From a virus, in the IMG/VR virus record IMGVR_UViG_3300037963_003785, positions 23,554-87,553 of that record: DNA of 64,000 bases, one strand, 5' to 3'. A program made the translations under genes and the position numbers. Under the pieces are notes generated by a model, which searched no databases, was not told the DNA's origin, and saw only the letters and a program-made list of their open reading frames with translations. Below are positions 5,407 to 52,097 of the stretch, piece after piece. Numbering within the stretch: position 1 is the first letter of the stretch; each line of letters begins with the position of its first letter.

Positions 5407-7062
5407 TTACACTTTATCAACGTCAGCGACAACGACAGTACCGTAGAACTCAGGTCTTACGATTTTCTTCGCGTAACGAGTCATCACACCTTTACGTGGA
5501 GTAAAGTTGGTTGGGTCGTATACGAGAGGTGTCATAATCAACGGAACATAAGGACTATACACAGCACCAGTTTCAAGGAAGTTACTTCCTCTGAAACCAA
5601 CAAGAATTACATTCTCGAATTGGTATGGGTTCTTGTAAACAGTAAATCTGTTGTTCAAGAGACCTGCTTTTTGTACACCCATTGCATACTGTTGATTGTT
5701 GGAATCACCATTACTATCAGTTGCATATCCAGGAATAGATTCAAGGATTGTAGCAACTTCAGGACTTACTACGATGAAGTTTGCACCACCACGTAGGGTC
5801 TTCTGATGAATCGCGTTAGACACAGATTGTATCTTGTTACCAAGTGTTTGGAACCAAGTTCCTTTCACGTAGGCATTAGATTGACCAGATGATTCTACAA
5901 AAGAACCACCATCCCATTCATATCCAACCTTTGCTGACCATTTTTCTTCTTTAGCGTTAGCATTTAAACGAATCATGTCAAGGATTTCTAAGTCGATTTC
6001 CATTGCGATGTATTCTGATAACATAGAAGTCAATTCAGCTTCTGCATCAACTGAGTGATAAGCATTAAGGTCTTGAGCTAACTCAGGAGTCCATACTGCT
6101 TTTAACTTACGAGTTTTTGCAACAATTGGAATTGAACGCATCTGAATATCAATTTCAGGTATTCCGACATCTCCCTCACCAGAGAAACCACCATCGGTAG
6201 CAGCTGCTGGAGAAGACTCGAAATCACCACGAGTGATATCAGTTGGTTGTTTATGGTACTTAACGGTGTAGGTTACATCACCTGCAGGGCCGTTAGCGTC
6301 AAACGTTGTTGTAGAGTCTGGTGCCACAATAAACTGAATGTGTGTACCAGCCGCTGGGTTTGAAGTACCATCGGAATCTACCCTCTTAGTGTAAGCAGGA
6401 TAGTAAGTAGAAAGTGAACCACTACCAGAACCACTAATTGAAAATGCTCTCGCACCATTCAAATCAGCAGCTGATAATTCACTATGTGCGAATCTTAAGA
6501 AACGTAGTGATGATAGAGAACCACTCAATGATGGTTCGAAATCAATCATAGCGTTTGTTGCTGATCCAGAAGTCGCTGTAGTTGTAGTTGCACTTACGTC
6601 ATTTATGGAATATCCGAATTTACCTGCTCCATAAAGACCACCACTTGGGTCACCAGAAGAAGAAGTGTTACCAAACACGTCTGCTCTTTGAGTGTGACCA
6701 GGTTGAGCTGAACCATACTTGAAATCAAGATAGAAGATTAGTCCAGATGGTAAGTTCATAGGCTGTACAGAAACGAATTCCTGTGAAGCTAATGAACCAA
6801 AGATTCTACGAATTAATGGAAGTGCAACACCGCTCCACTCTTCAGAGTTAGCAGTTGTAGACACTTTAGAAGCCTCATCAATTAACTGACGAGCCTGATT
6901 TTCCAATAGTGTAGCCATACCATGTTTTCTGTTCTCCTCATCTATACCTTCTAAAAGGCCAGTAGGTTCCCATTTCTCAACAAGTTTCTTGGTCTGTTCA
7001 CGAAGCTCTCTTTGCGGATTATATCCATCCATGATATTTTGGATTTCATTATAATTGCTCAT
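5407..7062 (-). CDS. gp23: Major capsid protein (T4 gp23 family)
   Basis: VSVQPMNLPSGLIFYL, AKTRKLKAVWTPELAQDLNAYHSVDAEAEL, YSPYVPL, FTPRKGVMTRYA; SD GGAG. Confidence 0.97.
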   Translation of the reverse strand: MSNYNEIQNIMDGYNPQRELREQTKKLVEKWEPTGLLEGIDEENRKHGMATLLENQARQLIDEASKVSTTANSEEWSGVALPLIRRIFGSLASQEFVSVQPMNLPSGLIFYLDFKYGSAQPGHTQRADVFGNTSSSGDPSGGLYGAGKFGYSINDVSATTTTATSGSATNAMIDFEPSLSGSLSSLRFLRFAHSELSAADLNGARAFSISGSGSGSLSTYYPAYTKRVDSDGTSNPAAGTHIQFIVAPDSTTTFDANGPAGDVTYTVKYHKQPTDITRGDFESSPAAATDGGFSGEGDVGIPEIDIQMRSIPIVAKTRKLKAVWTPELAQDLNAYHSVDAEAELTSMLSEYIAMEIDLEILDMIRLNANAKEEKWSAKVGYEWDGGSFVESSGQSNAYVKGTWFQTLGNKIQSVSNAIHQKTLRGGANFIVVSPEVATILESIPGYATDSNGDSNNQQYAMGVQKAGLLNNRFTVYKNPYQFENVILVGFRGSNFLETGAVYSPYVPLIMTPLVYDPTNFTPRKGVMTRYAKKIVRPEFYGTVVVADVDKV

Positions 7063-7081: not shown

Positions 7082-8281
7082 TTAAAGAATATTAGCCAAC
7101 TTCTTAAATCTATCTCTCAACGCACTACCCTCTTGAATTACTTCTTTAGGTTTTTGAGTTGATGCGACAGCTTTAGAAGCTGAACCTTTACTCTCGTTAA
7201 CGGTTTCATTTTTCTTAGCACCAAATGATTCAGCCAAAGTTGAATATACCAACTTGACTTCTCTTAAATTTGCTGCTCTGTCGAAAGTTTCAACAACTTT
7301 CAATTTCTGTTCGTTGTTAAGACCATAAGCCCTAAACAACTTATTGCTGAATAGCAACTTAGCGTTAAGAAGATTAACTTCGTTTAATTTACCACGAAGA
7401 TACTTAACCACATCTCTGTGTTCTTCTAACTCTTTACTTAGCTCTTCAACACGATTGTCCTGCTCTTCAACTTCTTCCTCTTCAGATAGTGCAGATAGGA
7501 TTTCATCTAAGTCAATGTCTTCTTCAACATCTTCTTCAACGTCTTCGTTTTCTTTTAACTTAGCTTTTCCTACTGAACCAATACCAGAAGATTTGTCAGC
7601 TGCACCTTTCTTGTTATCACCTGAACCGATACCAGAAGAATGGTCAACTTCTTCGTCAACTTCTTCATTCTTTTCATCGTCTTCATCTTCCTCATTTACT
7701 GATTCATCTTTCTTTTCGTCATCTTCATGTTCGCCTTCAGAAACGGATTCGTCTTTTTCGTCTTCCTCTTCTTCATTGATGTCAGCTTCTAATTCAGCAA
7801 GAACGGCTTCCAAGTCAAGGTCTTCATCTACATCGTCTTCTTTGTCTTCGTGTTCACCTTCTTCAACTGATTCATCTTTTTCTTCTTCGTCTTCTTCTTC
7901 AGTTTTAAGAGGTGCATACTTGACACCATCGATTTCAATGATTTCTGATTCATCAACTTCATCATCGCCTCTTTCTTCGACTTCTTTATCTTCAGGTTCC
8001 ATCTCTTCAGAGTGGTCGTCTGATGGGTCTTCGTCATCGGCATTGATTTTCATTCTTTCCTCAGGATCCTCGTCATCACCATGCATAGCTTCATCTTTTT
8101 CATCGTCTTCCATTCTTTCTTCTACATCTTCTTCTTCTTCCATCTCAGCTTGAATTTTCTGTGACAACATTGACTTTAATCGTGGAGTAAATGCTTCTTC
8201 AAGAGCCACTTTAGCGTTTGCTAGTGCAGTTTCACGAACTGCTTTTGCGTCAGCAATAGCGTCTTTTAATAAGTCATCCAT
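7082..8281 (-). CDS. Prohead core/scaffold protein (gp22-like), highly acidic
   Basis: Directly upstream of MCP; AIADAKAVRETALANAK..LEEAFTP, long D/E tract with repeated ESVxEGEHED, C-terminal LRDRFKKLANI; SD GGAG before ATG 8281. Confidence 0.8.
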   Translation of the reverse strand: MDDLLKDAIADAKAVRETALANAKVALEEAFTPRLKSMLSQKIQAEMEEEEDVEERMEDDEKDEAMHGDDEDPEERMKINADDEDPSDDHSEEMEPEDKEVEERGDDEVDESEIIEIDGVKYAPLKTEEEDEEEKDESVEEGEHEDKEDDVDEDLDLEAVLAELEADINEEEEDEKDESVSEGEHEDDEKKDESVNEEDEDDEKNEEVDEEVDHSSGIGSGDNKKGAADKSSGIGSVGKAKLKENEDVEEDVEEDIDLDEILSALSEEEEVEEQDNRVEELSKELEEHRDVVKYLRGKLNEVNLLNAKLLFSNKLFRAYGLNNEQKLKVVETFDRAANLREVKLVYSTLAESFGAKKNETVNESKGSASKAVASTQKPKEVIQEGSALRDRFKKLANIL

Positions 8282-8293
8282 TTTATTCTCCAT

Positions 8294-8427: not shown

Positions 8428-8637
8428 TTAAAAACGTGAGTTTTCACGTGAAATTCTTCTTGATTTCTCTCGTGCAATACCCTTTTTCTTTGCTTCTCTT
8501 CTCAAGGTAGATGGTTTTGTATAAAACTCTCTCTGTTTGAGTTCGAATAACATATTTGAGTCTTTAACTTTTTTCTTAAAACGTGATATAAGTCTTTCTA
8601 CAGACTCGTTTTTTTTCTTTGTAACTTGTATACCCAA
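8428..8637 (-). CDS. rpsU: Phage-encoded ribosomal protein bS21
   Basis: 69 aa; ESVERLISRFKKKV..L.ELKQREFYTKPS.LRR matches the S21 signature; TTG start. Confidence 0.9.
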   Translation of the reverse strand: MGIQVTKKKNESVERLISRFKKKVKDSNMLFELKQREFYTKPSTLRREAKKKGIAREKSRRISRENSRF

Positions 8638-9336
8638 TTAGTCCTCTTCGTTTTTTCCTTTATAGTTAGCGTCTACATAATTGAAGAATTTTTTCTTTTC
8701 CTCATCATCTAATTCTGCAGGTGATTTAATACCAAACTTCTTCATAGCCTTTTGAAAGAACTCTTCGTAGTCCCCCTCATCTATATTGTATTCACCAATC
8801 TTGGTTTCTTTTTCTTTTTCAGGTGTCATTGCATCATCTTGGTCATGACCACGAACGTGTCCTTCAGGTATCTCATAATATCTACCAATGATGTGTGCCA
8901 TATCTTCATATACAGCACTCATTCTTTCTTGTAGTCCTTGTGCCTCCTGTGCAAATTTACCAAATGATTTTGAGAGTGTAGTTAACTCTTTCATGTTACG
9001 ACCAACAGTTACTTTGTCAAACCAATCCTCTGTCTCACGAATTGTATTTTCTTTAACACCATTAGCTAATTCAGATAATGATTTTGCAACATCTCTTAAA
9101 TTACCCTCTCTGTAAATTAATTTACCAAGATTGTTAAAGTTGGATAGGTTTTCATTAAAAGCTTTTTTATCAAATTTATCTTCATTTTTATGTCCGTAGA
9201 TATCTTCTACTATATCAGATAAATTAGAATTGTTATTATGTAATGGTGAAGTACCACCGATAGCGGATATACCAACAACACCACCAATTGCTTCGTTTAC
9301 TAAATCTTTTAATTTAATGTTTTTCTTCTTTGACAT
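8638..9336 (-). CDS. Putative internal head protein, modular
   Basis: Leader IKLKDLVNE; C-terminal module DYEEFFQKAMKKFGIKSPAELDDEEKKKFFNYVD; SD AGGAG. Confidence 0.55.
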   Translation of the reverse strand: MSKKKNIKLKDLVNEAIGGVVGISAIGGTSPLHNNNSNLSDIVEDIYGHKNEDKFDKKAFNENLSNFNNLGKLIYREGNLRDVAKSLSELANGVKENTIRETEDWFDKVTVGRNMKELTTLSKSFGKFAQEAQGLQERMSAVYEDMAHIIGRYYEIPEGHVRGHDQDDAMTPEKEKETKIGEYNIDEGDYEEFFQKAMKKFGIKSPAELDDEEKKKFFNYVDANYKGKNEED

Positions 9337-9366: not shown

Positions 9367-9891
9367 TTATCTACGTTTTTTACCACGAAGATAACTTCTA
9401 AATCTTTTTTCTACTTTTCTCCAAAGGACTTGTAACATCTCTCTAACACCAACACTTGTATCCATAGCTGGGCCAGATTTTATTCCTCTGATTAAATCCA
9501 TTGCATCGTATCTACCACCCTTTACACCATTCATCATAATCTTGATACTTTTTGCAGATGCCTGATTGATAAGTTTCCCCATATCTCTGACATCTTTTTC
9601 TACAAACTTTTGTGCTTCCGTTGAACTAAAAGGAAGTTGTGATGGTGAATTAAGAGGTGCCTCTGTTAATTCAGAATTTAAAATGTAATCACGTGCCTTG
9701 TTTAGTCTATCAGAAGACTCTATTACTTTACCCATCCACCATGTTGGTAACTCTATATCACCAACACTTTCGAGTTTTTGAATAATCTCTTGACAATCCT
9801 CTATCGAAGTTTTTAACTTTCTAATAGCAGACGGAACATCTTCATGTCCATCTTCTGTCAATAAATTTTCTAAGTAAATATCTTTAATCAC
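9367..9891 (-). CDS. Putative internal head protein, two modules
   Basis: GTG start overlapping the upstream TGA; LLTE/D and ELTE/A junctions. Confidence 0.5.
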   Translation of the reverse strand: MIKDIYLENLLTEDGHEDVPSAIRKLKTSIEDCQEIIQKLESVGDIELPTWWMGKVIESSDRLNKARDYILNSELTEAPLNSPSQLPFSSTEAQKFVEKDVRDMGKLINQASAKSIKIMMNGVKGGRYDAMDLIRGIKSGPAMDTSVGVREMLQVLWRKVEKRFRSYLRGKKRR

Positions 9892-10343
9892 TTTAATAAA
9901 GTCCAATCTTGTGGATTTGAATAACGTGATTTATAATACCATTTCTTTTCTTTCATATTATATATGTAAGCGTATTCCTCACCAGAATTAAAATCAACTG
10001 CATCTCTATTCTTAAAAGTACTCATCGCACTTCCCTTTTCACCTCTGTCTCTTCCGTAGAATACTGTCTCACCATCTTTTCTATTATCAAAGGAATGGTC
10101 TTTTCCACCTTTTATACTTTTGTCTAAAAATGAAATACCTTGTTTTCCAAGTTTCATCAATTGTTTTACGATAGCAGGTTTATTATAAATTTTCTTTAAC
10201 AATTTACCTGTGTGTTGTGGATACCCATCATAATGTCCATAGGTGGATTGAATTTTACCATTTGGTTGTTCAATACCAACTAACCAACGAGTTCCTTCTG
10301 TAACTAATACAGATTCTTTTACTAAATTTTTTAATTTAATCAT
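9888..10343 (-). CDS. Leader-tagged phage protein of the (A/G)TR...HxDGYP family
   Basis: MIKLKNLVKESVLVTE-GTRWLVGI...YGHYDGYPQHTGKLL...YGRDRGE...EEYAYIY. Confidence 0.6.
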   Translation of the reverse strand: MIKLKNLVKESVLVTEGTRWLVGIEQPNGKIQSTYGHYDGYPQHTGKLLKKIYNKPAIVKQLMKLGKQGISFLDKSIKGGKDHSFDNRKDGETVFYGRDRGEKGSAMSTFKNRDAVDFNSGEEYAYIYNMKEKKWYYKSRYSNPQDWTLLK

Positions 10344-10344
10344 T

Positions 10345-12141
10345 TTATCTTCCCATAGTACCAAGACTTGTATACATTCCAGTATGCTTGGTAAACATTT
10401 TTTGTAATTGGTCGTTATAAACACCTTTTACTTTTGATTTAACTTTTAACTTTCCAGCTCTCATCTGAATAAATTCCATATTATATAGGTCTTTACCTCT
10501 ATCTAAATCTATTCTAACATAATTTACACCTTTGGAATTTCTACCAATCTTAAAACTCATTCCTTTAGGCCCCACTGCAAAGTTTTTTGCTCCAGTCATA
10601 GCGATAAATTTATTACCACCTAATTGTTTTAAGGTTTCACCACCTTGTCTCTTATTCATTGACTCTCTGTAAACTATCTTACCCACTTTAGATTCTATGC
10701 CAATGACGTGGTTTGGATACTTATCTCTCAAATCAGACATTTCTGCTGGTATCTCTTTTAGATTTTTTACAAGTACTCTTTTTACTACCTTATTGTTTTT
10801 ACTTACAATGATGTCCCAAGGCCCAACTTTAGGCCCTTTACGAACAGATTTCATCATATTAGAAGTTTTACTTTCATTTTTCTTTTTTAAAAGGTGAGGC
10901 CCAGCTGGTTCATCTCCTAATTTACCATCCTCACCATAACCACAAGTTCCTTCATTTTGTGCCCACAATGAATTCATTATCTGTGCTTTCTTTGCTGGAT
11001 TAGCCTTTTTGTACATTTTAGAAACTCTACCATACCATTTCATTATACCTTTGGTATCTTTTTTATTGTTACCGTATTTTAAAAGTAACTTTTCAATCTT
11101 TTTTTGTTCAGATTCTTGTACGGATTCTAACCCTAACATATCTGCAGCAACTACAAAGTTTGTCTTATCACCCTTTGATTTATCCAATTTAATTATTCTT
11201 ACTCTTTTCAAATGTTTCTTTAACAATGTAGCTAATTTTTTTGATTCCTTTTCATCGTCCATGAAAAAACTAAAAGCACCTTTACCTGTAGCCATATCTT
11301 TTACCGATTTTAATTTCTCAGACTTAACAATACTTTTCATTAAAGACTTCATTCTATCATGTACAGAAACTTCGTTTACGGATTCTTTAACTACTTTATA
11401 CTTACCCTTTAAAACATTATCTAATTGACTTTGTGAATTTGCAAATACTAAATCAAGTCGTTTAGTAACTGGCATCGTTCTTCCATTTGGAATCTCAGGT
11501 ACCATTTTAGACTTAATAACACCACCGATTGCATCTATGTATTGTCTTGTTCCTCTATCAGCTGTTTTTTTAGAACCTTGTAAACCTTTTTGATTATATC
11601 TTTTTGTAATTTTTAACTTATTTGCTAATTTTTGTGATAAGTTTCTACCAACTTCTGATTTGAATATTTTATCTGCGGTTGTAACAAGTAAACCAGGATG
11701 ACCAAGATTACGTGGATTGAATCGTGGTTGTTTACCAGTAAATTGTCTACCTGTCTTTGAAACTAAAGCAACATAGATATCTTCTGCAATTGTGTATCCT
11801 GTAGAATTAGTTGATATCTTTTTTTCTTTTTCTTTATCTTTTTTACGTTTCTTTTTAGTAGACTGAAATGCATAAGGTGTTTTAGGTGGGCCTTCACCAC
11901 CATCAAGATTTCCTGTTACAGAGGCCTCAGGTACCATTTTATACCCTAATACTTCTGCATTCTTTTTTCTTTCTGTTTCAAATTTTCTTTTTGCAGCACC
12001 TTTAAGTTCACCACCAAAACCCTCTTTTAATTCTTCATCAAGGTCTTCTTCTTTAAATGGAACAAAAGAATGTGCATAAGGATTACTTACGACTCTACTC
12101 ATTTCACCTATATTCTTTGGTAAGAAATCCTTTAGGTTCAT
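10345..12141 (-). CDS. Lysine-rich modular polyprotein, putative internal head cargo
   Basis: 598 aa with junctions LKE/G, VPE/A, KESVNE/V, ESVQE/S, QNE/G, KNE/S; last module LKQLGGNKFIAMTGAKNF. Confidence 0.55.
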   Translation of the reverse strand: MNLKDFLPKNIGEMSRVVSNPYAHSFVPFKEEDLDEELKEGFGGELKGAAKRKFETERKKNAEVLGYKMVPEASVTGNLDGGEGPPKTPYAFQSTKKKRKKDKEKEKKISTNSTGYTIAEDIYVALVSKTGRQFTGKQPRFNPRNLGHPGLLVTTADKIFKSEVGRNLSQKLANKLKITKRYNQKGLQGSKKTADRGTRQYIDAIGGVIKSKMVPEIPNGRTMPVTKRLDLVFANSQSQLDNVLKGKYKVVKESVNEVSVHDRMKSLMKSIVKSEKLKSVKDMATGKGAFSFFMDDEKESKKLATLLKKHLKRVRIIKLDKSKGDKTNFVVAADMLGLESVQESEQKKIEKLLLKYGNNKKDTKGIMKWYGRVSKMYKKANPAKKAQIMNSLWAQNEGTCGYGEDGKLGDEPAGPHLLKKKNESKTSNMMKSVRKGPKVGPWDIIVSKNNKVVKRVLVKNLKEIPAEMSDLRDKYPNHVIGIESKVGKIVYRESMNKRQGGETLKQLGGNKFIAMTGAKNFAVGPKGMSFKIGRNSKGVNYVRIDLDRGKDLYNMEFIQMRAGKLKVKSKVKGVYNDQLQKMFTKHTGMYTSLGTMGR

Positions 12142-12752
12142 TAGTCTTCTCTAAGAATAGAATGTATTATGTGTTCTGCCTTACCCCACTTATCATTACT
12201 AATACTTTCTTTTACAACACCCTCATTTACAGGATGTAAAAAAGCACCATGAGTAGACGGATTAGATACAAAGTCAAATGCAATTAACTCAAAGTCATCT
12301 CCAACTTTTTGTGCTCCTTTGTCTGGCCCCTCATTAACAGTTTCAACAGAACCCATACCACGAGAACTGATACCTAATTTAATACCAGCCTTAAATAATT
12401 CTTTTAATATGTTACCTGCAGGTGTACCAACCACTTCTACAGTTCCCAATAAATTGTCACCCTCCCAATGCATTTCTTTGACATTATGAGAAACGTTCTG
12501 TAAGTTTACTACAGAAGAATCTGGATGGTCTAATTCACCTAAAGCTCTTTTTTGACGAATAAAGTTTTCATCATACTCTTTGGCTTCACGTTGTAAAATT
12601 TCTCTTGGATACACACGACCATTTTGATTCTTAGCTTCTGCTCTCTGTAACACTCCACGAACAATTAACTTACCATTATTACTTTTCATGGATTCATTAA
12701 TTTGTTCAGGTGATACCTCAAATGGTATGTAGTCTACAATTAATTGTTTCAT
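12141..12752 (-). CDS. gp21: Prohead protease (T4 gp21 family)
   Basis: NQNGRVYP, ALGELDHP, VSH, GTPAGNILK, GISSRGMGS, DFVSNPST. Confidence 0.95.
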   Translation of the reverse strand: MKQLIVDYIPFEVSPEQINESMKSNNGKLIVRGVLQRAEAKNQNGRVYPREILQREAKEYDENFIRQKRALGELDHPDSSVVNLQNVSHNVKEMHWEGDNLLGTVEVVGTPAGNILKELFKAGIKLGISSRGMGSVETVNEGPDKGAQKVGDDFELIAFDFVSNPSTHGAFLHPVNEGVVKESISNDKWGKAEHIIHSILRED

Positions 12753-12753
12753 A

Positions 12754-13686
12754 TTATTTAGCCTTCTTTGCAGCTGCCACAGCATCTCTCATAAATGTTG
12801 TGACACCTTTTTTATATTTCTTTTGTAATTCACTTCCTAATTCTTTATTACCTTTTGTTGGGTCAAGATAAAGAGCCTGTACCATTTCATACATTGCTAA
12901 TCTCAGTCTTGATTCTTCTCTCATCAGTACCTTTAACTTAGCTTTGACTTTTTTTACATCATCTGGCCCTTCTGAAATCTTTTGTTGATGTTTTCTCTTA
13001 ACATCTGCTAGTGTAGGTAATGGTTCACCAAATTTTCTCTTCTTATCAAAGTTTTCATTTACAGATTCTCTTACACCCTTACCACCCATTTCTTTGTAAA
13101 CTTTTATTAGATTTTTAAGGTGGTCTTCATCTCTAGCATTAGTAACTCTACCTTGTTTCTTTATTCTCTTTTGAAACATTTCTATAGCATCTTTGAGTTT
13201 TTTCAATTCTACTTTATTAGATAAAGTGCGTTTATATGCCATACCGACATTATCTCTTTCATTTACAGATTCACCAGTATATTGTTTTTTATAAAAGTCT
13301 ACATCAGCTTTTGATTGTTTTTTAGGTTTGTCTTTCTTTCTTGAGAGTTTATCCTTGATTCTTTGGAAAAGACTCTTAGATTTTTTATGTAACGGGTGAG
13401 ATTTGTCCCTTAGAGGTGTTGAAGCCTTAACACTTTTACCTGTTTTTGGATTTTTCATCTGCATCTTGGTCATTTGCATCACAGTTGCAGCAACAATTGG
13501 ATTCTCTGATAGAATACTCTCTAAATTCTTATGTTTTGTAGAAGCATATTTCTTCACGTCTTTCCTTTTCATGTTTTTTGCTACATCTTGAGCTTTTTTA
13601 GAAAACTTAGATGCTGGTTGTTCCCCTTTTTGTATTGAACGTACAATACCCATAAATTTCTGTTGTTTTTTAGAAACAGATGGCAT
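12754..13686 (-). CDS. Lysine-rich modular polyprotein with N-terminal DUF3008-like module
   Basis: MPSVSKKQQKFMG..KYASTKHK, then LSE/N, ESVNE/R, ESVNE/N and ISE/G junctions. Confidence 0.55.
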   Translation of the reverse strand: MPSVSKKQQKFMGIVRSIQKGEQPASKFSKKAQDVAKNMKRKDVKKYASTKHKNLESILSENPIVAATVMQMTKMQMKNPKTGKSVKASTPLRDKSHPLHKKSKSLFQRIKDKLSRKKDKPKKQSKADVDFYKKQYTGESVNERDNVGMAYKRTLSNKVELKKLKDAIEMFQKRIKKQGRVTNARDEDHLKNLIKVYKEMGGKGVRESVNENFDKKRKFGEPLPTLADVKRKHQQKISEGPDDVKKVKAKLKVLMREESRLRLAMYEMVQALYLDPTKGNKELGSELQKKYKKGVTTFMRDAVAAAKKAK

Positions 13687-14898: not shown

Positions 14899-16758
14899 CT
14901 ATTCCTTACCTTTTATTGTACTGACATCATCATGATATTCTTGATTAACTTCATCTGACTCTGTTATTATCTTTACATCACTTTTGTTCATTAATTTTTT
15001 CATCTTATCAAAGTGGGCAAGTGCTAAAGTATTTCCATATTTACGTGAACCACTACCACCTTTTTTCTTATCGTGAGCTCCTAATACGTCTCTACCCCTT
15101 ACACCACTATCTTTACCATACTTATTAGGTTCTTTAGGTCTACCAGCTCCCTCTTGTCCACCTTCAGGTGCTCCACCCTCATCATCAAAGACGGAACCAC
15201 TAACATCATCGTCCCCACCTTCATCATCAGGACTTTGCATATCACTTGGTGTACCTACCGATTCTCCACTTTGTTTAGGGTCATTACCCTCGTTCTCTAT
15301 CTGAGAATATCTAAACTTTTGTTTATAGTCATATACAATTTTTTCTTCTTGGTCTTCTATTTCATCCTTAGTAAAATTATATATGTTCTTATAAATCCAA
15401 TCACTTGACATCAATCCATCTTGTATCATAGAAGAAGCAAGTGATGTCTTGTTGTTCCATAATTCAATTTTTTCTTGTTCATAAATTGTAGATGGATTTG
15501 TAAGACTCAATTCAAAGTTGACCAACTCTTCATCAGTAAAACCTTGTGCATATAAATGAACAATAGCAATCTTAGTCAACTCACTTACAACAATCCTTTG
15601 TATTCTTTCAATTGTTCTCGCAAACCTAACGTCTTCAGCAGCTAATGTAGCCTTACTTCCAACTTGTTCTTCATATCCAAGAAAGGCCTTGGGTACTTTA
15701 AGAGCAGCTAACATTTTATTTCTAAGATATTCAATATCATCAACTGCATCGTATGATAAACTACCAAGAGTTTCTATGTTTGTACCACTATCCCCACCTC
15801 GAACTGGCATGAAGAAGTCTTCTGTTATGTTTTGAATGTTATATTTTAAATTATAATCACCAGTTGTTTCATCTACCAAAGGTGTTTTCTTCATCTTATT
15901 AATAATTTGTTGCATGTAATTATCAACTTCTGCTGGTGGTATGTTTCCAATATCAACTTTGAACACTCTTTTTTCAGGTGCTCTCATAATCCTATGAATC
16001 ATCATAGCATCTTCCATAAGAGATAATTGTTTCCAAATCTTTCTAGCAGATTCTATCATTGATTTACCATAAGGAACATAGTTTGAATCTGATAGTAATC
16101 TGAAATGTGCCATTTGAAAGTTTTCTAATTCTGCACTTTCAGTTTCTTTTCGTGTATGATAAGCAGCCTGTCCTGTATTATCTTGTGTAATTACAAACTT
16201 AACTTCGTATGGATTTTCAGGATTACCACCCTCTGCACGTGCAACAATATAAGGTGTTAATGGTGTTACGTTTGTTACACCATACTTGTCTTGTACATCT
16301 AAGTGTAAAAAGAAATCACCATACTTACACATATTACGAACCCACGGCCATAAATTAAATTCGATGTTTAATATATCATAAAACAAATTATGTAATATCT
16401 TTTTAACGTTATCATTATCACTTTGAATTTCCAATACTTCTCCGTATTCGTTTTTCATTGTGGTCTCGTCCGAATAGACATCAAGTGCTGATGCTATGAT
16501 TGGGTCTGAATCCATAGTCTCGTAATCTCTGAATAGACCTAACCTCTCAGCCTGTTTATAGGTAGAATCCATTAGACCATATCCTGAACCCTTTGAGTTC
16601 TGATACAATCGTGTGAATCTATCGGTTAAACTTTTCTTATAATATCCTTGTAACTTTTCGGTGTCAGCTATTTTTAATTGGCGACCACCAACATTTCGTA
16701 CAATAACATTTGTACTGAATAGTCTTCTTAGTCTTCCAAATAATGTTTTATCTGCCAT
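14899..16758 (-). CDS. gp20: Portal protein (T4 gp20 family)
   Basis: QLSLMEDAMMIHRIMRAPEKRVFKVDIGNIP, EDFFMPVRGG..GTNIETL, DIEYLRNK..ALKVP. Confidence 0.96.
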   Translation of the reverse strand: MADKTLFGRLRRLFSTNVIVRNVGGRQLKIADTEKLQGYYKKSLTDRFTRLYQNSKGSGYGLMDSTYKQAERLGLFRDYETMDSDPIIASALDVYSDETTMKNEYGEVLEIQSDNDNVKKILHNLFYDILNIEFNLWPWVRNMCKYGDFFLHLDVQDKYGVTNVTPLTPYIVARAEGGNPENPYEVKFVITQDNTGQAAYHTRKETESAELENFQMAHFRLLSDSNYVPYGKSMIESARKIWKQLSLMEDAMMIHRIMRAPEKRVFKVDIGNIPPAEVDNYMQQIINKMKKTPLVDETTGDYNLKYNIQNITEDFFMPVRGGDSGTNIETLGSLSYDAVDDIEYLRNKMLAALKVPKAFLGYEEQVGSKATLAAEDVRFARTIERIQRIVVSELTKIAIVHLYAQGFTDEELVNFELSLTNPSTIYEQEKIELWNNKTSLASSMIQDGLMSSDWIYKNIYNFTKDEIEDQEEKIVYDYKQKFRYSQIENEGNDPKQSGESVGTPSDMQSPDDEGGDDDVSGSVFDDEGGAPEGGQEGAGRPKEPNKYGKDSGVRGRDVLGAHDKKKGGSGSRKYGNTLALAHFDKMKKLMNKSDVKIITESDEVNQEYHDDVSTIKGKE

Positions 16759-16767
16759 TTTATCCTC

Positions 16768-18345
16768 TTACTTTATTAACCAAGTTATATCTTCTTTTTC
16801 TTTACCTGTATCTACTTGCCATTGTTCTTGGAACATAGATGGTTTAGGTGTATAAATTGGTTGATTTTTATTAAAATATTCCATTGACTTTTTTTGTAGT
16901 GTGATTCCTTCAGCACGTAAACGTAATGCAGTATCACGTATCCATAGACAAATACCAAGTGACATTACTAAATCATCATTGTATCCCTTCATCGCCTCGG
17001 CTCTTTGGTTGTTATATATAAATACAAACAACTCATCCAATAATCTACTTGAATTTATTATAATTGACTTTTCTCTAAAATATTCTTCTATTTTAGCAAC
17101 TACTAATGGTCTTGTCTTCATTGTCATAGAGAAACCAGGTACCATGTTCCTTTCTTCCCTATAAATTTTATTTGACAATTGATGTTCAACATCAACATAC
17201 TTTAAATCTTTACTCGTGTAAAATAAATTATCATACCCTCTATCAATAATTTGTTGGATAGAAGCCCAACCAATGTTGTTGTTCTCAATTATTAATAGTG
17301 CATTATTATATTCAGTTGCAGTATTTAAACATAAGTTTCCAAAATCACGAGTAGAAATTTTTCCTTTATACTCTGCAACTTGTTCAACTGTTTCTGCATC
17401 AAAAACATGAAATGCAGAAAAGTCTGTTCCGTCCCCTCTTGAAACGTCAGCTGATAAAATATATTGTTTGTCATAGTTTGGATATTTCCAAACCCATAGA
17501 TTACCATCAAGTCCTCTTTTTTCGGATGGTTCGTTTACCATATTATTACGACACTCTTCTAAGATAACACCATCAATTACAGTACGACCTGAAGTTATGA
17601 AGTCACAATCACACTCTTGAGCAGCCATATCAGGCCCCAATAATTTATCTTGTTCAGTTCTCCAATCTTCAGTTCTATCGGGATGTACAGTCCAATGTAG
17701 TTTTATCCAATTAAACTGATTGGTTCCCTCTTCAGCACCAACCCATGTTTTATGAAACCAATTACCAACACCATTCGGTGTGGATAGTGCGATACAACTA
17801 CCACCAGTAGATAACGTCTGTTGAGCTGCAGTCCATATCTCATCAATCTTATCAATGAAAGCAGCCTCATCAAGTATCAATAACGACAGAGCCTCAGAAC
17901 GACCAGCATCTTCTTTACTTGATATTGCCTTTACTTGTGAACCATTTGCATATCTCAGAGACAATTTATTATCTTCAACACATTGTTGTTTAACCCAACT
18001 TGGTAAGTTTGCATGCATCACACGAATTTTTGTTACTAAGTTTTTAGCGGTATCTTGTTTGGTAGCAATCACCAAGACGTTTTTATCTTGATGAAAAGTC
18101 ATCATCCATAAAGTGTAACCAGCAGTAAGAGTGGATAAACCCAACTGACGGGCTTTTAATATAATGTTATATCTATGTTCGTGGAAGTCCCTTAAAGTTT
18201 TTTCTTGAAAGTCCCAAGTATGAAAAGGTATTTTACCTTTCATTGGATGTTGTATATAACAATACTTCTTTAAGAAATATACAGGATCCTGAGCACATTT
18301 AACATACTCTTTTTTGATTACTTCTTTTATGGGAACATTAGACAT
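16768..18345 (-). CDS. gp17: Terminase large subunit (T4 gp17 family)
   Basis: Walker A KARQLGLST, Walker B LLILDEAAF, STPNG, nuclease ADVSRGDG.D and DDLVM. Confidence 0.96.
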   Translation of the reverse strand: MSNVPIKEVIKKEYVKCAQDPVYFLKKYCYIQHPMKGKIPFHTWDFQEKTLRDFHEHRYNIILKARQLGLSTLTAGYTLWMMTFHQDKNVLVIATKQDTAKNLVTKIRVMHANLPSWVKQQCVEDNKLSLRYANGSQVKAISSKEDAGRSEALSLLILDEAAFIDKIDEIWTAAQQTLSTGGSCIALSTPNGVGNWFHKTWVGAEEGTNQFNWIKLHWTVHPDRTEDWRTEQDKLLGPDMAAQECDCDFITSGRTVIDGVILEECRNNMVNEPSEKRGLDGNLWVWKYPNYDKQYILSADVSRGDGTDFSAFHVFDAETVEQVAEYKGKISTRDFGNLCLNTATEYNNALLIIENNNIGWASIQQIIDRGYDNLFYTSKDLKYVDVEHQLSNKIYREERNMVPGFSMTMKTRPLVVAKIEEYFREKSIIINSSRLLDELFVFIYNNQRAEAMKGYNDDLVMSLGICLWIRDTALRLRAEGITLQKKSMEYFNKNQPIYTPKPSMFQEQWQVDTGKEKEDITWLIK

Positions 18346-23285: not shown

Positions 23286-24237
23286 ACAATCCCCTTTCTA
23301 CTTCATAATCAAAATTGATTACTTCTCTTTCAGGTTGATTTTTTGCCCACTCCCACATTTTAGTCAAACCATCTTTTATATCTGTTTTATGACTAAAATC
23401 TAATAATTCGACACTCTTATCATAAGTTGAAAATGCCTGATGAACTTCGTGTCTTTTTTCTAAAAATTCTATAGGTTCACCAAAACCAACAATGTCTTTT
23501 AATATATTAGCAGCAGCGACTAAACTAATTGGATAAATACCACCTAAGTTTATAATATGTCCATTAGTCCTTGAATCAATACTATTCAATAATGGTTGTA
23601 ATATATCATCAATATAAGTAAAAGCCCTACGTTGTAATCCATCACCAAAAACAGTTATTGGTTCGTTATTCAACAACTTTCTCATCCATATTCCCAATAC
23701 ATTTCTATACCTATCCCATATGTTTTGTTGTATACCATAAACATTATGAGGTCTGATAATACAATAGTCAATATTGAATTGTTCTTTCATACACCTCAAA
23801 TCTATTTCTGTACTTAATTTACTTACACCATAAGGGTCAATTGGGTTCGGAATATCATTCTCATCGAACGGAGCTTTACCTCTACCATAAACTGCCATCG
23901 ATGACGTGAATATAACTTTCTTTACTGAATTATTTATAGCAAAGTTAATTACTTGATTTGAAGTTTCAACATTATTTTTAGTAACATAGTTTCTGATAAA
24001 AGGTGACAATCCCTCTGCAGCAAATGCTGCAAAATGAAAAATATAATCAATCTTTTCCTCTATGTTTATTGGTTCTTTTAAATCAATATTATATAACTTA
24101 ACACGATTGTCTACAAAATCTCTATACCCACCACTAAAGTCATCTATACCAATAACATTATACTCTGTATTATCCAATAAAAATTTAGAAAAATTAGAAC
24201 CTAATAGTCCACCAACTCCTGTTATTAATATATTCAT
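23266..24237 (-). CDS. NAD-dependent sugar epimerase/dehydratase
   Basis: GVGGLLGS, TSSMAVYG, PYGVSK, RPHNVYG. Confidence 0.9.
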   Translation of the reverse strand: MNILITGVGGLLGSNFSKFLLDNTEYNVIGIDDFSGGYRDFVDNRVKLYNIDLKEPINIEEKIDYIFHFAAFAAEGLSPFIRNYVTKNNVETSNQVINFAINNSVKKVIFTSSMAVYGRGKAPFDENDIPNPIDPYGVSKLSTEIDLRCMKEQFNIDYCIIRPHNVYGIQQNIWDRYRNVLGIWMRKLLNNEPITVFGDGLQRRAFTYIDDILQPLLNSIDSRTNGHIINLGGIYPISLVAAANILKDIVGFGEPIEFLEKRHEVHQAFSTYDKSVELLDFSHKTDIKDGLTKMWEWAKNQPEREVINFDYEVERGLYEFWKN

Positions 24238-49664: not shown

Positions 49665-50545
49665 TTAGATATAACCTCATTTGTAAAACGTGTATGTGCT
49701 TTTAGAGATGGGTGATTATCACCAGGACTACAAAATCTTTCTTCATCTGTCATTCCTATCTGTTCAGTCCATTCGTTAATACCACCATAGTTATCATCAC
49801 AAAACCACCACTTGTCCCAATCTATAAGATTCCATAAATGTCTTGTATTATCAGACAAATTATCAACCATTGATTTATCAAGGTGTTTCCATCCAAAGAA
49901 AAATTTATAATCTAAATCATGTGATTTACAGAACCATTGTAATTTTAAAAAGTGTTCTAAGTTTTCTAATATCTCCAATTCATCATTGTAATAATTTTTA
50001 TAAAAGTCAACCCAAAACTTTTGTAATCTTTTATCCTCAACTATACCACCCTCAAGTGCGTGTCCACCAGGACTCTGTAACCATACAAATGGATAGTCTT
50101 TAAAATTAACTACTCCACCAGGTGCAGGCATGTGTTCGTGTAAAAGACTGAATGGATTACCACCACTTAGAATTTTATAACTACTCATACCGAATTGAAC
50201 TTGTGGCTCAACCATAAAGGAATATCTATTTAAAGATGACCAACATGCCATAACGTATGGTTTCTTTCCCTCATCAAGTAACTTAGAAGTTACCTTTATA
50301 GTGGCTCTTGAAATCATATTGTTACCAGCAGAACCAATTGCAGCACTATGTACATCATAGTTCCTATTACTAAGTTGTTCTCTCCAACTACCAGCCATAT
50401 CTGTGAAACTATCTCCACCTGTTATTATTGTATTTACTTCTTTTAATTCCATACTCTTTTTCCAAGGTTCATGTTTTAAAATTGTTCCAAAAGAATGAAG
50501 TCCATTCACAAAACCATCACCTGTATAAACAATGGTCTTATCCAC
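49652..50545 (-). CDS. SGNH-like protein paralog
   Basis: GGDSFT, SAGNNMI, DNHPSLKAH; start may be 50452. Confidence 0.6.
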   Translation of the reverse strand: MDKTIVYTGDGFVNGLHSFGTILKHEPWKKSMELKEVNTIITGGDSFTDMAGSWREQLSNRNYDVHSAAIGSAGNNMISRATIKVTSKLLDEGKKPYVMACWSSLNRYSFMVEPQVQFGMSSYKILSGGNPFSLLHEHMPAPGGVVNFKDYPFVWLQSPGGHALEGGIVEDKRLQKFWVDFYKNYYNDELEILENLEHFLKLQWFCKSHDLDYKFFFGWKHLDKSMVDNLSDNTRHLWNLIDWDKWWFCDDNYGGINEWTEQIGMTDEERFCSPGDNHPSLKAHTRFTNEVISKWIS

Positions 50546-52097
50546 TTTTTCTCTTCTTCCTTATTTTTGCCCTAAGTTCTTCTATGTTTCTTTTCATCTT
50601 TATTCTATCTGGCCCCAAATTAGGATTCAATTCTCTTGGTGGTCTTTTATTTTTTTGTTGTTCTTTATACTCATTTTTACATAGTTCCATAAATTCATGA
50701 TACTCTGGAAATGTAGCATAAAAGTCTTGGTCTCTACGTTTATCATATTGGGTAAAGAAACTATAAAAATCAGCTCTACCTTTTTTGACATATTCTTCAT
50801 CAGGATTTTCTACTTTAGTTCTCATATAATCAACAACCCTTTTGAATTTAGCTATTTCGAGTTGGTCAAAACCATTTCCATAACCACCACCGACTGATTC
50901 ATCGGTTTTGTTCTCTTCCATAAATAGTAGATGACTTTCCATATAGGGTAAAAAATCTGAAGTTAATATGTTCATATCGTAATGTGGTGGTTCTTTTAAA
51001 TACGGCGTATCGAACTGAATCCTCTGTACCATATTACCCTCATACTCCTTTTCAAACAATTCAGGATTATTATATTTTTTTCTCCACTCCAAAATCTTTT
51101 CTAACAAAGACCTAAAATTTACAACACATAAAATATTAAAAGTTATCATCAAAGACATTCTTGAGTTTTCAATACCAGTCAAATATTTATGTAGATTTTT
51201 TTCAAACAATTGTAAATCAAGACCAGTTCTTAAATACTCAGCATCTTCACCCCAAATATCAATAGACGTGAACAACTTAAAATCTTTTACCTTTTCTTTT
51301 TCTATAATAGGTTTTAATTTATTAACAAATCTATCAACGAGATGATGACCGACTCCCAAGTTCGTATTTATATTTAGTTCTAAATGTGGTAATGGTTTTT
51401 CATTTAACAGGTCTAACATCCTGTAAGTAGAACCGTGTATCAAGGGTTCTCCTCCTGTGATACGTAATATATTTAAGGTCTTGGACATAGTCGGCCACCA
51501 ATCAAACCATGCTTTTACATAGGGATTTTGTTCTTCATCTTCTTGTAACTTTTTTACAAACCAATCTATGTCATACTTTCCAGTATTCATATTTTGATAT
51601 TGACCATTCTTTCTTATCTCATCTAAAAACTTAGAACTATATCTTGGATGGCAATATCCACATTTGAAGTTACAAGCGTTTCCAAAAGAAACTTCTATGT
51701 ATTCAGGATTAACATTGTAGTCCCATCTATGTGACTTAATCTCATCAATTCTTTTTGGGTCTGATTGATATATAGAAACAGTTCTTTGTTTCCTATCACT
51801 TATATAATCATCACCTAAAGACTCTACGTTCCAACAATACTGACACCCACTTGGTTTTTCACCATCTAACATTTGTTTTCTTTCTAACTTCTTTTGTTTG
51901 GTGTTGTGTAGTGCTGATGGATTGTCCTTTAATTCATCTAATGGTATTTCATGTGGTGGTGGATGATAACAACTATGAGTTTCACCAAGATGTAAATACA
52001 TCGTCACATGATGCCATTTTGCAAGACAAAAAGTGGGACTTGTCTTTTTTAGTATTTCTGGTAATACTTTATTTATTCTTACTAATTCGTGTTCCAT
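50538..52097 (-). CDS. Radical SAM protein with N-terminal twitch/SPASM-like Cys motif
   Basis: FCLAKW..SCYH..CQYCW, CNFKCGYC, TGGEPL, NTN. Confidence 0.85.
   Translation of the reverse strand: MEHELVRINKVLPEILKKTSPTFCLAKWHHVTMYLHLGETHSCYHPPPHEIPLDELKDNPSALHNTKQKKLERKQMLDGEKPSGCQYCWNVESLGDDYISDRKQRTVSIYQSDPKRIDEIKSHRWDYNVNPEYIEVSFGNACNFKCGYCHPRYSSKFLDEIRKNGQYQNMNTGKYDIDWFVKKLQEDEEQNPYVKAWFDWWPTMSKTLNILRITGGEPLIHGSTYRMLDLLNEKPLPHLELNINTNLGVGHHLVDRFVNKLKPIIEKEKVKDFKLFTSIDIWGEDAEYLRTGLDLQLFEKNLHKYLTGIENSRMSLMITFNILCVVNFRSLLEKILEWRKKYNNPELFEKEYEGNMVQRIQFDTPYLKEPPHYDMNILTSDFLPYMESHLLFMEENKTDESVGGGYGNGFDQLEIAKFKRVVDYMRTKVENPDEEYVKKGRADFYSFFTQYDKRRDQDFYATFPEYHEFMELCKNEYKEQQKNKRPPRELNPNLGPDRIKMKRNIEELRAKIRKKRKSG

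Follow-up and report, generated by a model that had tools for sequence, protein, structure and literature searches.

A predicted capsid-targeting-type propeptide on a HxDGYP-domain protein in the head module of an uncultured T4-like phage

The window analysed here is a 64,000-nucleotide stretch of viral DNA (positions 23,554 to 87,553 of IMG/VR record IMGVR_UViG_3300037963_003785), in which the minus-strand open reading frame (ORF) 9888-10343 encodes a protein of 151 amino acids (aa) plus stop, designated P0001. The phage is an uncultured marine T4-like myophage, and P0001 is probably one of its packaged internal head proteins, made with a 16-residue leader and cut after Glu16. The start of the protein reads MIKLKNLVKESVLVTE-GTRW, and because the leader ends in a protease motif exactly where untagged relatives begin, P0001 is most likely packed, trimmed and delivered with the DNA. 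The initial annotation had read the frame as this leader joined to GTRW, with YGHYDGYP further on, and the reading was correct; the latter motif lies at residues 35-42.

In the proposed mechanism, the first 10 residues would act as a T4-style capsid targeting sequence (CTS) that binds the scaffold core during prohead assembly, and a gp21-type serine protease would cut the protein after Glu10 and Glu16. The cut would release a basic protein of 135 residues with the N-terminus G-T-R, the same as that of untagged members after Met removal, and this mature form would stay in the head with the DNA and enter the host at infection. An activity made elsewhere from early-region genes of other phages would thereby be present from time zero. 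Targeting, cleavage, retention in the head, ejection and an activity of the cargo are steps that we infer. Five features of T4 CTS-tagged internal head proteins were found in the sequence, namely the leader pattern, the site at the domain boundary, the S77-family protease, the shared tag and the basic mature domain.

The leader, its joint and the mature domain

All parts of P0001 lie on the minus strand, and the ORF as a whole comprises the leader and a phrog_1987-family domain, as judged by translation and profile match. By the rules of the T4 CTS, residues 1-10 (MIKLKNLVKE; 10314-10343) form a CTS-like core: in the order M1 I2 K3 L4 K5 N6 L7 V8 K9 E10, the residues L4, L7 and V8 are hydrophobic and E10 completes the pattern. 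The first protease site is predicted after E10. Residues 11-16 (SVLVTE; 10296-10313) form a linker closing in the junction site L-V-T-E, with the predicted maturation cut after E16; this hydrophobic-x-Glu site is followed by G17 and coincides with the boundary of homology. Residues 17-151 (9891-10295) constitute the predicted mature protein (135 aa, 15.7 kDa), which carries the most conserved block of the family alignment, the HYDGYP motif, at residues 37-42 (10218-10235). Close homologues start with the same or a related leader. A signal peptide or lipoprotein reading of the leader was rejected, the leader being charged and amphipathic and having no hydrophobic core.

T4 internal proteins carry a CTS of ~10 residues and are described as highly basic (PMC8442874), residues 4 and 7 of the CTS are important in targeting and residues 8 and 10 in processing (PMC9026906), and T4 gp21 cuts after Glu in I/LxE with the catalytic residues H85 and S140 (PMC12991175). 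The prohead protease of the window (12141-12785, minus strand) is 32% identical to T4 gp21, and its H87 and S140 align with the T4 catalytic H85 and S140. It lies ~1.8 kb upstream of P0001, with a 598-aa ORF as the sole gene in between.

Positions 2-118 (of 128) of the phrog_1987 profile were aligned to P0001 residues 17-141 (E 1.4e-21), so that homology starts at Gly17, aligned with the residue just after the initiator Met of the family. An exhaustive HMMER search returned 3017 relatives at E <= 1e-3, and most of the distant ones among them pair query residues 17/18 with their own residues 2/3. An M-[GAS]-T start was found in 89 of 147 distant representatives from this search; R is residue 4 in 71 of these 89, and the motif H is residue 22 in 77. 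The initial annotation had taken standalone phage HxDGYP proteins to begin M-(A/G/S)-T-R, and both the profile boundary at residue 17 and these starts bear this out. In a 107-row alignment the conserved residues are T18, Y35, H37, D39, G40, Y41, S71, H83, Y96, R98, D99, R100, Y126 and W135, with T18, H37, D39, G40 and Y41 each kept in at least 90% of rows. P0001 has all of the conserved T, H-x-D-G-Y, H and R-D-R residues of phrog_1987.

Matches in cultured phages came from 97 records, all at <60% identity to P0001, and the four that were inspected are all untagged. The annotated coding sequence begins one codon ahead of the match to query residue 17 in P-HM2 and CcrColossus; in S-PM2 and S-SRM01 its first codon aligns with query residue 16. 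The translated proteins of P-HM2, CcrColossus and S-PM2 all start with MATR. Untagged members are found among small genes outside structural modules (P-HM2, S-PM2 and metagenomic contigs), and genome position suggests early expression of the untagged homologue PHM2_061 of P-HM2, a gene that is not named in the main text of PMC5082946.

The joint between leader and domain was surveyed in 268 homologues (three from named records were left out), rows that are not independent since many are close relatives. Sequence is present ahead of the domain in 170, whereas 87 start at the domain and 11, mostly fragments, have no recognisable junction. The residue directly ahead of [GAS]-T-R (P1) is Glu in 167/170 extended homologues, P3 is I, L or V in 166/170, and P1' is G in 134, A in 18 and S in 18. 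The exceptions at P1 are two proteins with Met at -1, which are probably miscalled starts of untagged genes, and a third, P0162, with Ala. Homologues routinely extended at the N-terminus without a Glu site, the outcome named in the initial annotation as counting against its propeptide, thus did not appear. Its claim that a cut after VTE would recreate the native terminus of the family held as a comparison, the predicted terminus being the [GAS]-T-R with which untagged members are left when they lose their initiator Met; its further suggestion, an activity that needs a free N-terminus and is switched on at head maturation, is supported circumstantially.

The 128 short Met-initiated leaders comprise 66 different sequences of 10-57 residues. 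A hydrophobic-x-x-hydrophobic-hydrophobic-x-Glu pattern ends within the first 16 residues in 121 of the 128, the commonest end points being position 12 (67 leaders) and position 10 (36), and the shortest leaders, of exactly 10 residues, directly abut the domain. In longer proteins the same joint parts the domain from up to 319 upstream residues. On sequence comparison, the 16 residues of P0001 are well supported as a removable propeptide of the capsid-targeting type. In a metagenomic protein of 570 aa, P0179, the domain lies within a polyprotein, with LLITE before it and modules after it that are parted by ESVVTE, ESAITE, ESVVTE and ESVVNE.

The [ILV]xE motif occurs just twice in P0001, each time in the leader, and residues 17-151 are free of it; the product of a scaffold-like gene nearby contains 27 such sites. 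Site depletion and charge were compared on 50%-identity representatives, with expectations taken from shuffles. Tagged domains (n=43) have 0.37 [ILV]xE sites against 0.94 expected, and 65% of them have none, whereas untagged domains (n=91) have 2.18 against 1.80 expected and 7% have none. Mean net charge is +4.2 (isoelectric point, pI, 8.5) in tagged domains and -4.8 (pI 5.9) in untagged ones; the mature part of P0001 has a net charge of +10 and a pI of 9.6. Depletion of sites and a basic charge are expected of a protein that survives a Glu-specific protease among packed DNA, and mature P0001 would presumably survive in the presence of the protease.

The leader is not confined to P0001. In a six-frame search of the 87.5-kb record of this phage, KLK[ND]LV[KN]E was found twice, at the starts of P0001 and of a 232-aa ORF, 2 and 7 residues past their respective ATGs. 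In the related loci L007, L008, L010, L017 and L020, all 18 of 18 six-frame matches to a broader leader pattern fall within ORFs of 110 aa or more, at a distance of 2-4 residues from a start codon. The hit lists of L008 and L010 are identical, so some of these matches are not independent. The same six-frame search gave no match to the broader pattern in L018 and L024, which have a different leader variant, and three loci with untagged forms also gave no match to it. Tagged genes group around the prohead protease in the window and, on reading of the ORFs, in L007 and L010.

Several observations weigh against P0001 as a packaged and trimmed head protein. In the record of the phage itself, a loose leader pattern is weakly enriched at N-termini (8/93 ORFs vs ~4 expected), and the cut specificity of the window protease is assumed from T4 gp21, at only 32% identity. 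No tagged form was found among cultured phages (50,697 records; matches at <60% identity, four inspected). The tagged homologues in L018 (5983-6453) and L020 (5980-6450) lie outside any head module, as do the internal protein genes of T4 itself with respect to the T4 head cluster. No protease was found in L018, L020 or L024, an uninformative result given that these contigs are fragments, 9-19% complete. Finally, the tagged forms fit one clade and a single origin. When 135 representatives were placed on a tree, a single supported group of 48 took in 43 of the 44 tagged rows (Shimodaira-Hasegawa-like approximate likelihood-ratio test, SH-aLRT, 96), and a tree holding all 44 tagged rows together was not rejected and was better than the quick free tree (approximately unbiased test, p-AU 0.83). 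Five untagged rows (P0162, P0175, P0185, P0206 and P0240) are tentatively placed within the tagged clade. Because the tagged forms fit one clade, the depletion and charge contrasts reduce to roughly a single evolutionary event, and their Mann-Whitney p-values give them too much weight; with a single origin of the tag, the exact joint may be inherited and conserved rather than repeatedly selected.

The tagged homologues of L018 and L020 have 21-residue leaders ending in ITE or IAE. One neighbouring ORF starts MIKLKDIL, and the ORFs next to these homologues have N-termini that we take to resemble gp32 and UvsX.

The cargo domain and rival readings

An AlphaFold2 model built on the 107-row alignment gave residues 17-151 a mean predicted local distance difference test score (pLDDT) of 93.1, with a predicted template modelling score (pTM) of 0.85. 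The leader was modelled at pLDDT 62-72 with a short helix at residues 4-10, and in the domain the predicted strands 20-25 and 31-38 form a hairpin. For P0001 there was no Pfam match (and no Pfam family common to more than one of the 107 aligned members), no NCBIfam match, a best PADLOC match of just E about 0.03, and no match to PDB sequences with either the single sequence or a profile. The model had no match at E <= 1e-3 in Foldseek against the PDB. A wide VIA-align search with it gave a best Z of 3.5 (root-mean-square deviation 3.9 over 75 residues) to aminoacyl-tRNA-synthetase anticodon-binding domains, below a meaningful level. Matches in BFVD were uncharacterised phage proteins only, and those in the ESM Atlas were unnamed viral clusters only, the nearest named cluster being Prok-E2_D (0.86, 15% of members), a weak lead. 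Long fused forms of the family had no informative partner domain (20 searched against Pfam, 10 of those against PHROGs).

The conserved polar set T18, H37, D39, S71, H83, R98, D99 and R100 suggests a small enzyme, although this is only an impression. N-terminal-nucleophile (Ntn) hydrolases such as proteasome beta subunits are activated by loss of a propeptide, and in P0001 such a loss would likewise uncover a conserved stretch at the N-terminus, in which an invariant Thr lies near the new end. Assignment to that class was rejected, since the Thr (Thr18) is residue 2, not residue 1, of the predicted mature chain, which begins at G17. P0001 also differs from these hydrolases in that a separate enzyme would make its cut and in the small size of its domain (135 aa); the fold matches listed for the model include no four-layer alpha-beta-beta-alpha chain of the Ntn kind. 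An iron/2-oxoglutarate-dependent oxygenase, as the H-x-D...H pattern might recall, was likewise set aside as speculation, with no jelly-roll fold among the matches listed. In the metagenomic protein P0164 (282 aa) the HxDGYP domain is duplicated in tandem, and the internal copy has lost T-R and the motif H and D and has kept the YGRD block.

A rather unlikely refinement of the packaged-cargo reading, which leaves the latter standing, is that P0001 is a zymogen. Its active site would include the free N-terminus, next to HxDGYP; in the producing cell the enzyme would be kept inactive by the leader or by an upstream polyprotein, and the prohead protease would activate it once inside the capsid. 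Such a role would fit the position of the domain at the extreme N-terminus in 10/10 untagged multi-domain members with long C-terminal extensions, the spacing of zero residues between Glu and [GAS]-T-R in 167/170 extended forms, the presence of a Glu joint, with one exception, wherever anything precedes the domain, and the conservation of Thr18 in at least 90% of rows with R at the next position in 71/89. Judging from its predicted strands, the hairpin 20-25/31-38 should set residues 17-19 beside H37/D39, and the internal copy of P0164, a single case, is without both T-R and HxD. Against it, the mature terminus would be Gly, Ala or Ser and not the conserved Thr, which is not the classical Ntn arrangement; the fold searches returned no Ntn-hydrolase or other enzyme fold among the matches listed; a single origin of the tag makes the exact joint explicable by descent together with the need to keep the first strand intact; and the leader was modelled as flexible and not docked. 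The case for an activity needing a free N-terminus is circumstantial. It is unlikely, by our estimate, that the HxDGYP family as a whole consists of small enzymes completed by a free N-terminal segment, with the leader doubling in this lineage as a safety catch, released by the prohead protease only within the closed capsid, and the protein injected ready to act.

An uncut leader, acting as an amphipathic N-terminal helix in oligomerisation, in contact with membrane or nucleic acid, or as a recognition tag for a modifying enzyme, is improbable. A helix is indeed predicted at residues 4-10, and a candidate modifying enzyme may be seen in the window in a weak, sub-threshold Radical_SAM ORF (50538-52097), but this ORF lies 40 kb off in a different gene block. 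Leader length, moreover, ranges from 10 to 57 residues, but the last residues before the joint are always [ILV]-x-E, the tagged genes cluster near the prohead protease (window, L007 and L010), and an uncut helix would not explain the [ILV]xE depletion of mature domains. The location of the P0001 gene between the protease and the scaffold gene would also suit a core or scaffold protein with only a passing role, which would be directed to the prohead and then, as with T4 gp22, gp67 and gp68, be broken down and leave the head; the T4 core does contain several small proteins that are cut to fragments. This fate is nonetheless quite improbable for a 135-aa domain that has no [ILV]xE where the scaffold-like neighbour has 27, that is predicted to be compact and is confidently folded in the model, and that is basic, as are the retained T4 internal proteins; other members of the family are found in non-structural regions of cyanophages and jumbo phages. 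An annotation artefact, with the true start elsewhere and the leader untranslated or belonging to the upstream gene, is highly improbable. A longer GTG-initiated frame (9888-10424) exists, and in databases a number of homologues (232-413 aa) are annotated as one protein together with what lies upstream, but the GTG start at 10424 overlaps the upstream gene and lacks support. No in-frame start codon lies between M1 and G17, many independent metagenomic gene calls start at the same MIKLK or MKISRL Met, and the P0001 ATG follows the stop of the upstream 598-aa ORF by one base.

Comparison with known systems

The CTS of T4 is the classic route for loading proteins into a phage head. P0001 shares with it a 10-residue tag with hydrophobic residues at 4, 7 and 8 and E10, a predicted I/L-x-E type of cut, a protease of the gp21 family in which the catalytic His and Ser are conserved, a predicted mature protein that is small and basic, and the use of one tag on unrelated bodies. 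The T4 gp23 maturation region FLTE-AEIG, which we take to be the actual cut of gp23 after residue 65, resembles the L-V-T-E/G joint of P0001. Unlike the T4 system, P0001 has a second site six residues on, has Val at P3 where the T4 rule gives I or L, is encoded in the head module itself, downstream of the protease gene and upstream of the scaffold gene, and is known here from sequence alone; unlike T4 IPI*, its cargo has an unrelated fold and comes from a large family of mostly untagged phage proteins. Mechanistically, P0001 would represent the T4 CTS/gp21 system with a new cargo. Searches of the open-access literature gave no paper that describes a CTS in marine T4-like phages; those returned on capsid targeting in a marine context all dealt with T4 or SPN3US.

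T4 Alt is an ADP-ribosyltransferase that is packaged and processed, with ModA and ModB as its non-packaged early paralogues. The family of P0001 would similarly combine a processed, virion-delivered form with forms made after infection, but its fold and family are different, P0001 is without a C-terminal site, and the two forms occur in different phage lineages rather than in one genome. Alt itself is processed by gp21 and trimmed at its C-terminus too (PMC9026906). The ejection proteins of the giant phages phiKZ, 201phi2-1 and SPN3US have propeptides that are cut at (S/A)-x-E by a gp21-related protease; as proposed for P0001, removal is after Glu and there are multiple sites per propeptide, and paralogues have conserved N-termini (PMC5694885). 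Unlike the leader of P0001, these propeptides are mostly >100 residues and have a small P3 residue (A/S) rather than I/L/V, and a T4-type scaffold is not confirmed in the three phages. Set beside phrog_1987 and the hypothetical HxDGYP proteins of cyanophages ('T4-LIKE GC 66'), the P0001 domain clearly belongs to the family and has every one of its conserved residues. Typical members, however, have the M-[GAS]-T-R start, are acidic and lie outside structural modules, whereas the P0001 lineage is tagged, basic and site-depleted.

P0001 is a useful test case in that the start of ~90 untagged representatives serves as an independent ruler, which puts the predicted cut at one exact residue. In addition, the same domain can be compared in its two natural forms, one made post-infection (acidic, motifs at expected frequency) and one predicted to be pre-packed (basic, motifs depleted). 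Such a comparison would show which sequence changes accompany the passage from phage gene to delivered effector and could yield rules for predicting virion cargo from sequence. P0001 would also mark phrog_1987, an uncharacterised family with thousands of phage members, as needed at the very start of infection by at least one lineage. If true, the safety-catch reading would amount to a packaging-coupled zymogen switch for a phage effector that is harmless to the producing cell while tagged.

Head module and neighbouring genes

The window (32% G+C) contains a T4-type head module on the minus strand, described here in order of transcription. The large terminase (16768-18345) and the portal (14899-16758) are followed by three small ORFs and then by the prohead protease, which is of the T4 gp21 type (Peptidase_S77, PF03420, 99 bits, E 3.3e-28). 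Between the protease and P0001 lies the 598-aa ORF (10345-12141), and P0001 is followed by a 179-aa ORF with a TTG start (9367-9906), the 232-aa ORF (8638-9336) and a 69-aa bS21-like ORF inside the head module (8428-8637; Ribosomal_S21, PF01165, E 4.4e-10, 39.6 bits vs a cut-off of 27). Next come an acidic, scaffold-like protein of 403 aa with its 27 [ILV]xE sites (7082-8293) and the major capsid protein of the Gp23 family (5407-7062). The 403-aa protein had no family match in Pfam or PHROG profile scans; its position and composition suggest the scaffold role, and it would be the core to which the targeting leader binds. For the major capsid protein, the closest counterparts in the phage collection (~50-55% identical) are those of an uncultured phage, of Microcystis phage Mel-JY01 and of the Flavobacterium phages 'immuto'.

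In the 598-aa ORF, residues 10-13 read NIGE and there are ten [ILV]xE sites, several of them internal and with VVKE/SVNE in tandem among them; just the last ~90 residues match a family (phrog_9437, E 6e-27). With NIGE near its start and ten such sites, the ORF may encode cargo or a cargo polyprotein. The start of the 179-aa ORF overlaps the end of P0001 by 19 nucleotides, and its first 18 residues contain two hydrophobic-x-E sites (YLE and LTE) in the same two-step layout as the P0001 leader; it is a possible, less certain further cargo. The 232-aa ORF begins with a paralogous leader (IKLKDLVNE, then AIGG). Between the leader-encoding nucleotides of P0001 (10290-10343) and of this ORF (9286-9336), 25/27 positions are identical, synonymous positions included, which could be due to recent copying or gene conversion, or to the narrow codon choice of an AT-rich genome.

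A 310-aa ORF (12754-13686, minus strand) matches DUF3008 at its N-terminus (E 1e-3, below cut-off) as well as several PHROGs, and its MP(S/A)xSKxQQ(K/R)FMG start recurs in the related locus L007. The Radical_SAM-like ORF mentioned above (50538-52097, minus strand) encodes 519 aa, scores 23.9 bits against a cut-off of 29.5, and lies in a long block of sugar- and glycosyltransferase-like genes. Among homologues of P0001, some leaders of 38-41 residues contain an inserted module resembling (S/K)xW/L-x-R-K/E-F-G-E-x-L-P-T-L. Because the same module is also found behind the tag in separate neighbouring genes (L008, L010 and L017), the leader system may include it as a second mobile part.

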